A DNA stretch of 64,000 nucleotides. It comes from Escherichia coli. Lineage in GTDB: Bacteria > Pseudomonadota > Gammaproteobacteria > Enterobacterales > Enterobacteriaceae. Of the stretch, positions 11,120-14,863 are shown in pieces. Positions within the stretch are counted from its first letter, which is position 1; each line of letters begins with the position of its first letter. A program made the position numbers and the translations under genes. The stretch lies in assembly GCF_030013205.1 (NCBI RefSeq), contig NZ_CP122648.1. The stretch is one strand, 5' to 3'. Below the pieces are notes generated by a model. That model was not told where the DNA came from, ran no database searches, and saw only the letters and a list, made by a program, of their open reading frames with translations.

Positions 11120-13132
11120 TTAAGAGGCCAGCGTACCTTGTGGCGGTGCTTGCTCAAGTTGCGAAAGCGAGCAGTACAGCCGCCAGACAATTGCCGCCAG
11201 CTCGCGGGCGGCAGGTTGATGATGGCGGGCAAGGCTGTCGCAAATCCGCTGTAATTCTTCAAGTGTGGCCGCCAGTGATTTTTGCTGAACGCCACGCTCA
11301 CTCATCACTCCGCGCAACAGTGAAATACAGTTATCCCGTACTCGCGATAACGGATCGGAACGCGATTCCCAGTCGCGCAATTGCCAGACAACATGAGAAC
11401 AGTTCAGCAGCACTACACCCCAGCGTAATAACCAACGGCGAGCCAGCGCATCTTGGCTGTTACTCAACTGACTGACGTGATGATAAGTGAGCGATTCAAA
11501 TTCGCTTTCACTCAGTGTTGGATGGCGGCTTAGCTGATCGACAAAATCCCGGCGCAGCGCGCGAATATGACGACGGCTTTTACGAGCATCCGACCCTGGA
11601 CGCAAAATGGCGAACGCTAACCACGCCAGCGCAACGCCAACGATTTTTGCCAGATTATCGTTAAGAAAATCAGCAAAATCATACACCGGGGGATTAGTGA
11701 CAGCGATAAACGAACCCATAAAAACAATCAGTTGCCCCCACAGTGCGGCAAATTTGGGCATCTGCAATTTAAGAAGCTGCATTGTCGCCAGCAGTGGAAA
11801 GAGAAACAGTAAAAATTGCCACAGATCGCTAATCTGGACCATCAGGCCAAATTTGACCACAAAGCTGAATAGCGAAAGTAACACCAGAGTGCGCATCAGT
11901 AGTGACAACGACTTAAACGGTGCTGCGACGGCGGAGTAGAGTACGCAGCTAATTGCTGCCAGCGTTAATGCATTGGCACCGGCATCCCATTGCGAAGCAA
12001 TACTCCATGCGCCAATCATCATCAACGTACAAAATGTACGCAGTCCGCTCCACATAGCTTCGGCGTTATCGGTATGACGAGCCAGGCCGGATGTCCGTGG
12101 GAGTCTGGTATGATCATCCACACCGCTTTGCAGACGATGTAATTCCTGACTACTTTGCAGATAAAGGCGGCAAAAATAACGTAGTCGCTGCCAGAAGGCG
12201 ACGTGCCGGTAGTCGGCGACGTTGGTCGGGCGTAGCGGGGCGATAATACGTGCGACGGTGTAAACATCTGTTTGCGAACTGGCGAGCGCCGTCAGCAGCT
12301 GTTCGAGAATTTCTCGTGTGGCACATGGCGGTGAGGGCCAGTTGAGCAACATACGTCGCAGGCTGGAGATGACACTGGTCATACGTAATTGCTGGTGGAG
12401 CAGCGCATTAAGGCGTGCGTTTTGCTGGCGAAAACGATAGTGGCTCCAGAAAGCCTGGATACGGAGCAAATTCATGGTCAGTATCTGTCCAATCACCCCC
12501 TCATGTGCTGCACGAATGGCATCGGTTGTTTCAGGCTGCCAGAGTAAACTGGCATGTTCCAGTAATCGGGCGTGCATGTTTTTCAATGCGGTTAAAAGGG
12601 CAGTAGCATCGGAACTGCTCGGCAGGATCATCATCATCATGCCGCCGCACAAAATACCGACAATCACCTCGCAAACGCGCGCCTGAGCGATATCCCACAG
12701 CTGGCTGGCCTCAGTAATATTAACCATCGGAAAGGCGATGATGGCAGCCGTGTAGCCCGCCAGTTGAAATGCATACGCGACATTATTCGTGAAGTGCGCA
12801 CAGGCCCAGGTACAAAAGCCAAGCCACGCCGCCATGCTCAAAAGAAAAAACCACGGCTCATTGAGCGTATGTCCGGCAAGAAGCAGTGCCGCAATGGCTC
12901 CGAGCAAACTGCCAGCGATGCGTCCGAGGCTTTTGCTGATGACACCGTCAACGGTGGGAAAGCTAACCACGGCAGCCGAGGTCATCGCCCAATAGGGTTC
13001 ATCCAGATTTAAATAATAGGCAACCGTCAGCGCCAGACACATGGCAATGGTATTGCGTAACGCATAACGCCATTGCGCCAGCGTGGCCCTGAACCAGGGC
13101 AAATTGCGTAAGGACCATGACGATGCGTTCAT
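11120..13132 (-). CDS. ydhK: FUSC-family (AaeB-like) inner-membrane efflux protein
   Basis: 670-aa hydrophobic ORF; synteny. Confidence 0.85.
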
Positions 13133-13989
13133 TATTGACCTACGGCAATGCTACAGGTGGTGCCCGACACCAGCGTGACATCGCCTGGGACTTTATCCAG
13201 CGCAAAGCGGACGGGAACGCGTTGGGCAAGTCGAACCCAGGGGACGTTAGGTTTCACATCCGGAATAAGGCTTGAGTCACTTTCAACGCTCTGATCATAA
13301 ATCGCCCGACCGATACTGGAAACGTGACCCTGTAACGTTTTGTTATCACTATAGAGGGTAATTTGTGCTGGTGCACCTTCGCGGATATGGCGCAACTTGG
13401 TTTCTTCAAAATAACCAATGACGTAAAACGAGTGGCTGTCGACAAGGGCAAACAGCGGTTTCCCGGTGTCAGCGTAATCGCCGATGCGGGTAGTGAGGTT
13501 AGTCACCCATCCACTCACCGGGGCGCGAATTTCCGTTTGCGCCAGTTGCCATTGTGCCTGTTTCAGCGTCGCCTGTGCGGCATCAACACTGGCCTGCATC
13601 GCTTTAACATTGAGGTTAGCGGTATCGAGTTCTTCGGCAGAAATAAAATTTTGTGAGAGATGACGACGACGATTCGCTTCGTTATTGGCTTTTGCGAGGT
13701 CAGATTGCGCTTTCGCCAGCTGAGCCTGTGCGTTCAGCTCGGCGATCTGAAAGGGCGTTTTATCGATCGTGAGCAGAAGATCCCCCGCGTTAACCAGTTG
13801 GTTGTCTTTTATATTCAGCTCAACAATACGTCCCGACACCTGAGGGGTGATAGAAACCTGTTCTGCGCGTATTTTCCCGTCGCGTGTCCACGGAGATTGC
13901 ATGTAATAATTCCACAGCCACCATCCGGCAAGAACCGCAACTACCGCTACAATGATTGTTGAGAAATACTTAATTGTTTTAATTGACAT
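13132..13989 (-). CDS. ydhJ: HlyD-family membrane fusion protein (AaeA-like)
   Basis: ORF trimmed to MSIKTIKYF start (285 aa); 1-nt overlap with ydhK start. Confidence 0.85.
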
Positions 13990-13991
13990 AG

Positions 13992-14228
13992 TTACCACGC
14001 AATCAGTATTGCCAGGGCAAGGCAAACGCAAATCGCAAACAGCGATAAATCCATTAACAAGGGATGCCAGATGTCACCGGCGTAGATCCAGCCACGAAGC
14101 AGGCGGTGTACGACAAGCCAGATGACGAATCCAAACGCGAAGGCTTTGAAAAACGGAGGAAAGTAGACGGACGCACCGAACACCAGATCTTGTAAGGGCA
14201 ATCCTGTTGCATTGAGCATAAACTTCAC
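13992..14228 (-). CDS. ydhI: DUF1656 small inner-membrane protein (AaeX-like)
   Basis: 78-aa hydrophobic ORF directly upstream of ydhJ. Confidence 0.8.
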
Positions 14229-14422
14229 AAAGTAGATTCCTTTACGACCGAATATATTGCGTTAGATTAATAAATATTCTTTAAGTGCGAAAAATTTACG
14301 CGCAATTTCTGAAAAATATGTCTGACGGTAACCAAATGCAGCAATACATTTGTTTTAGCAATACAATTGCTGCACACTATTCTAAAAGCCGCATTATATC
14401 TTAGCAAGCTAATTATAAGGAG

Positions 14423-14863
14423 ATGAAATTGGAATCGCCACTAGGTTCTGATCTGGCACGGTTGGTGCGCATATGGCGTGCTCTGATAGACCATCGCCTG
14501 AAACCGCTGGAGTTAACACAAACCCATTGGGTTACGTTACACAATATCCATCAGTTACCTCCAGACCAGTCGCAAATTCAACTGGCAAAAGCGATTGGCA
14601 TCGAGCAGCCATCACTGGTCCGTACTCTGGACCAACTGGAAGAAAAAGGGTTAATTTCGCGTCAAACTTGTGCCAGCGATCGTCGGGCTAAACGTATTAA
14701 ACTGACGGAAAAGGCAGAGCCGCTGATCAGCGAAATGGAAGCTGTTATTAACAAAACCCGCGCGGAAATTTTACATGGCATCTCCGCAGAGGAACTGGAA
14801 CAACTGATTAAGCTCATCGCAAAACTTGAGCATAATATCATTGAGTTACAGGCCAAAGGGTGA
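14423..14863 (+). CDS. slyA: MarR-family transcriptional regulator SlyA
   Basis: [21 protein letters not shown]... recognised as SlyA; true start may be the TTG two codons downstream. Confidence 0.9.

Follow-up and report, generated by a model that had tools for sequence, protein, structure and literature searches.

The ydhIJK operon of Escherichia coli: a probable aromatic-carboxylate efflux paralogue of AaeXAB encoded back to back with slyA

What kind of transport device is encoded by the three tightly packed genes that lie back to back with the regulator gene slyA in Escherichia coli, and how is it controlled? In the window, the 64,000-nucleotide stretch of E. coli DNA analyzed here, ydhI (13992-14228; 78 aa, GTG start), ydhJ (13132-13989; 285 aa) and ydhK (11120-13132; 670 aa) follow one another on the minus strand, and slyA (14429-14863; 144 aa) is read from the plus strand. 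Direct reading of the sequence places 2 nt between ydhI and ydhJ (tggTAActATG) and shows the exact 1-nt overlap that the original prediction had reported between ydhJ and ydhK (TAATG, in the context caaTAATGaac), where the last A (13132) of the ydhJ stop codon TAA (13132-13134, minus strand) is base 1 of the ydhK ATG. YdhI is a small membrane protein with a DUF1656 domain (PF07869, E 1.8e-14), YdhJ is an HlyD-type membrane-fusion (periplasmic adaptor) protein with HlyD_3, HlyD_D23 and Biotin_lipoyl_2 domains, and YdhK is an inner-membrane transporter matching the Pfam FUSC profile (PF04632, E 6e-138, 461.7 bits, cut-off 30.9) over profile positions 1-658 of 660; coordinates, strand and domains thus agree with the predicted order of a DUF1656, an HlyD-type and a FUSC gene in one compact, co-oriented set. 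The full-length match makes YdhK a member of the FUSC/Aromatic Acid Exporter family (PF04632; TC 2.A.85), in which it is entry 2.A.85.1.6, labelled uncharacterised in TCDB-based lists. The three genes are real conserved genes and not chance open reading frames, because the region 10500-15500 is present (at least 80% of its length at 95% identity or more) in 5409 of 5426 complete E. coli genomes. The locus is an ordinary E. coli core operon, ydhIJK, back to back with the regulator gene slyA.

The closest known system is AaeXAB (YhcRQP), an E. coli efflux pump for aromatic carboxylic acids, in which genes for a DUF1656 protein, an HlyD-type adaptor and a FUSC protein are likewise co-oriented, tightly spaced and accompanied by a divergent regulator gene. 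Gene order, spacing and protein sizes agree (67 and 78 aa, 310 and 285 aa, and 655 and 670 aa for AaeXAB and YdhIJK, respectively), as expected from the earlier claim that ydhIJK mirrors aaeXAB. Profile comparison had been set beforehand as the test of that homology, and in it the NCBIfam equivalog models for AaeX and AaeB were the sole matches of YdhI (E 2e-4, 21.4 bits, cut-off 82) and YdhK (E 5e-34, 117.8 bits, cut-off 870), and the model for AaeA was the best of 23 matches of YdhJ (2.8e-72, 243.4 bits, cut-off 400), with each match spanning nearly the full length. BLASTP against the K-12 proteins likewise supports homology of all three proteins, with identities of 33% between YdhI and AaeX (E 1e-5), 41% between YdhJ and AaeA (E 5e-68) and 24% between YdhK and AaeB (E 4e-27). 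The equivalog cut-offs are reached by none of the three proteins, and the true aaeXAB sits at another location in E. coli; since all three scores fall far under the cut-offs, the profile evidence indicates that YdhIJK is a paralogue of AaeXAB at 24-41% identity, rather than an orthologue or AaeXAB itself. The regulator-pump layout is mirrored in that both operons have a divergent regulator gene, but the likeness is analogous and not homologous, because SlyA is a MarR protein whereas AaeR, a LysR-family protein, carries the annotation of a transcriptional activator. Furthermore, ydhIJK has an extra sigma-E input relative to aaeXAB. The homology of YdhIJK to AaeAB has already been stated (Will et al., 2025; PMC12506092).

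The description of ydhIJK as a tripartite efflux module needs a qualification. In its usual sense the term requires an outer-membrane channel besides the inner-membrane pump and its adaptor, and no outer-membrane factor gene was found at the locus, in the annotation for 3 kb on each side of region 10500-15500, or at the homologous locus L009. The combination of FUSC, membrane-fusion (MFP) and DUF1656 proteins is shared with FUSC-family fusaric-acid resistance pumps of other Proteobacteria, but the Burkholderia fusABCDE and Stenotrophomonas FuaABC systems each include a gene for an outer-membrane factor, unlike ydhIJK. YdhJ itself has a hydrophobic N-terminus without a lipobox Cys and is related to adaptors of solved structure (EmrA, AcrA, MacA), and its orthologues match the AaeA-type Pfam families for the hairpin and the beta-barrel. 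The neighboring slyB was considered as a source of the outer-membrane partner and rejected, as its product is a small lipoprotein (Rick_17kDa_Anti family) and not a TolC-type channel. That the partner is not encoded nearby counts against the efflux reading developed below.

The region between the divergent genes had been delimited as 14229..14422; its start holds and its end shifts to 14428, because RefSeq starts slyA at a curated TTG (14429) and not at the in-frame ATG (14423) to which the open reading frame reaches. The ends of the resulting 200-bp control region (14229-14428) match the EMSA primers TC65 and TC66, and SlyA has been shown by EMSA to bind exactly this intergenic region in E. 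coli K-12 (Curran et al., 2017; PMC5797941), from which the present sequence differs by one SNP. The assignment of slyA as a divergent MarR-family gene is borne out by its domain match and by 278.9 bits against the NCBIfam SlyA equivalog (cut-off 120). A single exact match in the 64-kb window (14401-14412) was obtained for the 12-bp near-palindromic sequence TTAGCAAGCTAA, which we take to be the SlyA consensus box, and the locus therefore pairs a divergent MarR-type gene with a predicted operator in the region shared with an efflux operon. The box is conserved in the Salmonella control region, where the slyA-proximal two thirds are conserved and the ydhI-proximal third (about 60 bp) has diverged. 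The -35 element of a sigma-70-like promoter facing ydhI (14379-14407, minus strand; TTGCTA, 17 nt, TAGAAT; 9 of 12 consensus matches) overlaps the box, and this promoter is held as a candidate because the scan yielded fewer sites than expected by chance. In the control region of Salmonella, a TGGCAC motif resembling a sigma-54 element was considered and dropped, as it does not fit the -24/-12 spacing.

The arrangement slyB-slyA followed by divergent ydhIJK and sodC is shared with the orthologous loci of Klebsiella oxytoca and Salmonella, and the operons of Salmonella Typhimurium and Klebsiella are repressed by SlyA and KvrA. SlyA represses ydhI and salicylate lifts this repression (Will et al., 2019; PMC6401476); in Salmonella, repression by SlyA in vitro was 19-fold and relieved by salicylate (PMC6401476), and in Klebsiella kvrA mutants YdhJ rose 45- to more than 100-fold (bioRxiv 845925). 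In E. coli K-12, by contrast, overproduction of SlyA did not repress ydhIJK but raised it 2.2-fold (PMC5797941), a mild activation, so that the sign of regulation may vary with the species or with the choice of promoter. This opposite sign in K-12 also counts against the reading given next.

Taken jointly, the evidence is best explained if ydhIJK is a single operon for an inner-membrane aromatic-carboxylate efflux device, paralogous to AaeXAB, under SlyA and sigma-E, and with a channel-type mechanism that we infer from the fold of YdhK; we put the probability of this reading at about 85%. YdhK would be the membrane translocator, YdhJ the adaptor, held in the inner membrane by a hydrophobic N-terminal stretch, and YdhI a small accessory membrane protein. 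The divergently encoded SlyA binds the shared 200-bp control region and, in Salmonella and Klebsiella, represses the operon until aromatic carboxylates such as salicylate free it from DNA, with the envelope-stress factor sigma-E as a second input. Within one chain, YdhK would form the pore that plant ALMT proteins form as homodimers, carboxylate anions would leave the cytoplasm through it, with the membrane potential (negative inside) supplying at least part of the driving force, and YdhJ would take them through the periplasm, possibly as far as TolC.

Aromatic-carboxylate efflux by E. coli YdhIJK is a putative function, drawn from the delayed growth of Salmonella ydhIJK mutants in fusaric acid (PMC6401476). 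As a growth delay only, in Salmonella, this phenotype also counts against the efflux reading. AaeAB, for its part, has defined substrates (4-hydroxybenzoate and two others, as cited in PMC12506092), whereas the fusaric-acid phenotype is all that is available for YdhIJK; the earlier view that the substrate of the pump is poorly defined matches that of Will et al. (2025; PMC12506092), who call the physiological substrate unknown. It is nearly an even prospect that YdhIJK mainly exports an endogenous aromatic metabolite, possibly a chorismate-derived acid sensed by SlyA, as a "metabolic relief valve" for which fusaric acid is incidental. The discoverers of AaeAB called it a possible relief valve, to go by a title cited in PMC12506092, the FUSC protein Rv2571c exports alpha-ketoglutarate, and a DUF1656 pump of Cupriavidus has a phenotype on 4-hydroxybenzoate. 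DUF1656 genes share fitness phenotypes with neighboring MFP and FUSC pump genes in other bacteria. The frequent separation of slyA and ydhIJK outside the enteric cluster (PMC6401476, PMC12506092) counts against the relief-valve reading. Export of an endogenous acid would refine the aromatic-carboxylate efflux reading and does not exclude it.

The pairing with slyA, the AaeAB homology, the control by SlyA and the first phenotype are already published, and the locus therefore carries little weight as a discovery; what is new here is an ALMT-like two-unit model of YdhK and the G62D allele of this strain. The YdhK sequence gave no meaningful match among all PDB chains, and no paper mentioning AaeB together with cryo-EM was found in the literature; because no FUSC structure has been solved, a predicted model (AF2, pLDDT 92.5) and a fold search were used. 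BLASTP of the N-terminal against the C-terminal half did not find an internal repeat, but profile-profile alignment with hhalign matches residues 18-198 to 357-538 (95.8%, E 8e-9). Together with the helices of the model, this alignment shows that YdhK, as in the FUSC family, consists of a unit repeated in tandem: a membrane domain of several helices and, after it, a helical domain in the cytosol. Each modeled unit resembles a plant ALMT anion channel, with a six-helix transmembrane domain (TMD) and a helical C-terminal domain (CTD), and the two units would pair to form a pore. In Foldseek searches, ALMT anion channels were the only solved structures to match the whole TMD and CTD unit, with weak E-values of 1.8e-3 to 7e-2. 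Identity to AtALMT1, AtALMT9 and GmALMT12/QUAC1 is about 15%, and ALMTs are homodimers of single units that lack adaptor or small-protein partners, whereas YdhK is one chain of two diverged units and has both.

Channel activity of YdhK is putative and drawn from fold similarity, and the TCDB class of YdhK, among secondary carriers (2.A.85), counts against it. Pumps that use membrane-fusion adaptors (the RND, MFS and ABC tripartite systems) are normally energized, and both this habit and the TCDB class would favor a conventional proton-coupled secondary antiporter over a channel-like, voltage-driven anion pathway. Nevertheless, MFS and other carriers reach Foldseek probabilities of 0.23 at most against the YdhK model, the whole unit is matched by ALMT channels alone, and a channel role of the ALMT kind has been proposed for Rv2571c, a FUSC protein with a single repeat; the antiporter is thus left a somewhat doubtful alternative. 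In the channel-type reading, the duplicated ALMT-like fold provides a concrete, testable mechanism for an under-studied class of pumps.

Codon 62 of ydhK (12947-12949, minus strand) is GAC (Asp) in this strain and encodes Gly in K-12 and in all orthologues. This Gly is invariant in 105 of 105 YdhK orthologue clusters, at least 90% conserved in 81 diverse FUSC proteins, although the query has Asp, and aligned with a Gly of AaeB; the G62D allele occurs in just 17 of the 5426 genomes, all from pigs. In the model, G62 stands at the N-terminus of helix 61-89, and a charge at the start of this helix, which carries the conserved K67 and R71, could cripple the pump and leave the operon of this strain non-functional or altered. 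We regard this as unlikely, given that the ydhK reading frame is intact, the operon proteins are otherwise identical to those of K-12 and the model stays confident around position 62; G62D may nonetheless impair YdhK, and it offers a ready-made natural variant for probing the mechanism. A broader synthesis would make YdhK, and AaeB by extension, a single-chain pseudo-dimer of the ALMT unit, and the YdhIJK/AaeXAB class a membrane-potential-driven, channel-type carboxylate extrusion system built on a periplasmic adaptor and not a proton antiporter, with the endogenous aromatic-acid pool sensed by SlyA as cargo and G62D of pig ETEC as a natural loss- or change-of-function variant. As a whole, this combination is speculative and rather improbable.

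The second regulatory input opens a further alternative, in which YdhIJK chiefly serves the sigma-E envelope-stress response, for instance by removing toxic envelope-derived compounds, and the adjacency of slyA is a historical leftover. A sigma-E-dependent PydhIJK has been reported, with 20-fold induction of its RNA, and ydhK, which is toxic on over-expression, figures in a list of the sigma-E regulon; the main text of PMC1312014 names none of ydhI, ydhJ and ydhK. Scanning with the pattern GGAACTT-N15-17-TCNAA returned a sigma-E-like element facing ydhI (14262-14289, minus strand; CGCACTT, 16 nt, TCTAA), which is a sequence-level candidate, and ydhIJK has repeatedly been lost in lineages that retain slyA (PMC6401476). 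Nonetheless, strong and direct repression by SlyA and KvrA in Salmonella and Klebsiella (PMC6401476, bioRxiv 845925) and a literature reporting no envelope phenotype for YdhIJK make a primarily envelope-directed role improbable, and the efflux operon with sigma-E as its second input is preferred.

The predicted co-transcription of ydhIJK is backed by gene spacing, by internal signals at chance level and by papers that treat the genes as one unit (PMC5797941 and the sigma-E report). That the genes are independent and their packing coincidental is already effectively refuted and scarcely credible: the one sigma-70-like match within ydhJ (13322-13294) and the two weak terminator-like hairpins within ydhI and ydhK belong to sets at or below the counts expected by chance in a consensus scan used solely to establish that no internal signal stands out, the 2-nt gap and the 1-nt overlap provide no space for signals, the operon has been reported as a single transcription unit, and the trio recurs in distant genomes. 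The DUF1656-MFP-FUSC trio persists in homologues of 48% and 28% identity where slyA is absent, its architecture is conserved at loci L005, L007, L008 and L009, and in Klebsiella oxytoca (L005/L006) ydhJ and ydhK likewise overlap by 1 nt.

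The three minus-strand genes divergent from slyA, ydhK (11120-13132), ydhJ (13132-13989) and ydhI (13992-14228), carry Pfam domains of a full-length FUSC protein (461.7 bits), an HlyD-type adaptor and a DUF1656 protein, respectively. The AaeB equivalog model is the single NCBIfam match of YdhK (5e-34, near full length), the AaeA model ranks top among the 23 NCBIfam adaptor models matching YdhJ (2.8e-72) and the AaeX model is the single match of YdhI (2e-4), with all three scores far short of the respective AaeB, AaeA and AaeX equivalog cut-offs. In BLASTP comparisons with the K-12 proteins, YdhK shows 24% identity to AaeB (E 4e-27), YdhJ 41% to AaeA (E 5e-68) and YdhI 33% to AaeX (E 1e-5). 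The K-12 aaeX-aaeA-aaeB operon has the same gene order, similar gene sizes and, as here, a divergent regulator gene; its intergenic gaps are 7 and 5 nt, whereas ydhI and ydhJ are 2 nt apart and ydhJ and ydhK overlap by 1 nt. Together, the profile matches, identities and common architecture establish ydhIJK as a paralogue of aaeXAB. The original prediction of an AaeXAB-like module paired with a divergent MarR-family slyA is thus supported, and the profile comparison it had named as a possible refutation upheld the homology.

Several lines of evidence point to ydhIJK being a single operon. Signals could not fit between the genes: the ydhJ stop and the ydhK start share one base (TAATG), as had been predicted, and only 2 bases separate ydhI from ydhJ. 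Promoter-like or terminator-like matches inside the three genes do not exceed their frequency in shuffled sequence. The trio recurs in Klebsiella oxytoca with the 1-nt overlap kept, and persists at homologues of 48% identity, where slyA is absent nearby, and of 28% identity. Published transcript data likewise handle ydhIJK as a single unit (including PMC5797941). At the 28%-identity locus (L008), a 66-aa DUF1656-like ORF (3906-4106), with FPPF and WHP motifs like those of YdhI and AaeX, adjoins the adaptor gene upstream; the source assembly lacks a gene call for it, and annotation probably tends to miss small DUF1656 genes. Rare YdhJ-YdhK fusion proteins, each from a single genome, occur in E. 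coli-like and Salmonella assemblies (P0002, 845 aa; P0048, 900 aa, Salmonella locus L007, 3001-5703). Presumably a change in or beside the 1-nt overlap created each of them; they may reflect sequencing errors, or be natural fusions indicating that both proteins tolerate linkage.

The RefSeq annotation of an identical record and our ORF list concur on the gene order from sodC to slyB (14910-15377, minus strand) and on the predicted positions of ydhIJK. The plus-strand slyA (14429-14863; MarR in Pfam) was also correctly recognized, but its start had been placed at an in-frame ATG at 14423 instead of the curated TTG at 14429. Both starts lie within 14423-14431; the ATG yields a 146-aa protein, as annotated in Salmonella and Klebsiella, and the TTG the 144 aa used by RefSeq in E. 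coli. SlyA of this strain differs from that of K-12 by T128K. Downstream of ydhK, its stop codon abuts that of the convergent sodC (plus strand, ending at 11119) with 0 nt between them (11117-11122), so each transcript has to terminate within the opposite gene; ydhK-sodC is among the predicted excludon pairs of E. coli (PMC12288877). In Klebsiella oxytoca, sodC and ydhK overlap by 8 nt.

Between ydhI and slyA lies a 200-bp control region (14229-14428). It contains, at 14401-14412, the only exact match in the 64-kb window to TTAGCAAGCTAA, which we take to be the SlyA consensus box. Sequence scans place two candidate elements facing ydhI: a sigma-70-like promoter overlapping the SlyA box and a sigma-E-like motif, CGCACTT-N16-TCTAA, at 14262-14289. 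An EMSA probe whose primers match both ends of this region was bound by SlyA, and SlyA overproduction in E. coli raised ydhIJK expression 2.2-fold (Curran et al., 2017; PMC5797941). SlyA represses ydhI 19-fold in vitro and salicylate relieves the repression, Salmonella ydhIJK mutants show delayed growth in fusaric acid, and the genes have been lost repeatedly across Enterobacteriaceae (Will et al., 2019; PMC6401476). Disruption of kvrA, the Klebsiella slyA orthologue, increases YdhJ 45- to over 100-fold (bioRxiv 845925), and RNA-seq again shows repression of ydhIJK by SlyA in a study that states the AaeAB homology outright and leaves the physiological function yet to be determined (Will et al., 2025; PMC12506092). 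Two papers include ydhIJK in the sigma-E regulon, and co-fitness led Price et al. to annotate DUF1656 as a component of MFP+FUSC pumps. Because these studies cover it, the idea behind the original prediction, with most of its proposed experiments, is already published; ydhIJK is not new, the core operon, its regulator and its paralogy all being known and a first phenotype reported. On one point the studies genuinely disagree: SlyA mildly activates ydhIJK in E. coli but represses it strongly in Salmonella and Klebsiella. Aligned with its Salmonella counterpart (L007, 2568-2761), the E. coli control region is near-identical in the slyA-proximal two thirds, SlyA box included, whereas the ydhI-proximal ~60 bp, where the E. 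coli sigma-E-like motif is located, have diverged with indels; we infer that this divergence could lie behind the opposite effects in E. coli and Salmonella. In one Klebsiella oxytoca genome (L005, 2760-3683), an IS element with a DDE_Tnp_1 transposase splits the control region.

A sequence search of PDB chains with YdhK detected no solved FUSC structure. The predicted YdhK model, built on an alignment of 81 diverse homologues, is confident (pLDDT 92.5, pTM 0.90), and its first eight Foldseek matches in the PDB are the plant anion channels AtALMT1 and AtALMT9 (probability 1.00), all non-ALMT matches scoring at most 0.23 except one isolated cytosolic-domain fragment. Profile-profile comparison relates residues 18-198 to 357-538 (95.8%, E 8e-9). 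The model and this repeat together indicate that YdhK is composed of two ALMT-like units within one chain, whereas ALMTs pair two chains. Conserved positions concentrate in the first repeat, among them K67 and R71 on helix 3 and R152, which is invariant, on helix 6. For an M. tuberculosis FUSC protein with one repeat, a 2026 preprint also arrives at ALMT and draws attention to an arginine of the pore in TM6. YdhK would then form an anion pathway through which carboxylates exit down the membrane potential. The TCDB class implies proton antiport instead, a mechanism that is plausible for YdhK, if less likely than not. Under the anion-pathway reading, YdhJ, whose N-terminus is hydrophobic and without a lipobox, would prolong the pathway into the periplasm, perhaps as far as TolC, and YdhI would act as an accessory subunit; the annotated features around 10500-15500 include no outer-membrane factor gene.

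The window is chromosomal E. coli DNA. Across 10500-15500 it shows 100% identity to several genomes of pig ETEC and O139:H1, and 5409 of the 5426 complete E. coli genomes contain no less than 80% of this region. YdhI and YdhJ do not differ from K-12, and YdhK carries G62D, S101A and G270C. Codon 62 (12947-12949, minus strand) encodes Asp in place of a Gly that is invariant in all 105 orthologue clusters, at least 90% conserved among 81 diverse FUSC proteins and aligned to a Gly of AaeB. Searched with a 61-mer around the codon, the G62D allele was found in 17 of the 5426 genomes, all from pigs, ETEC or O139:H1. G62D may weaken the pump here and could be a functional lesion specific to this lineage.
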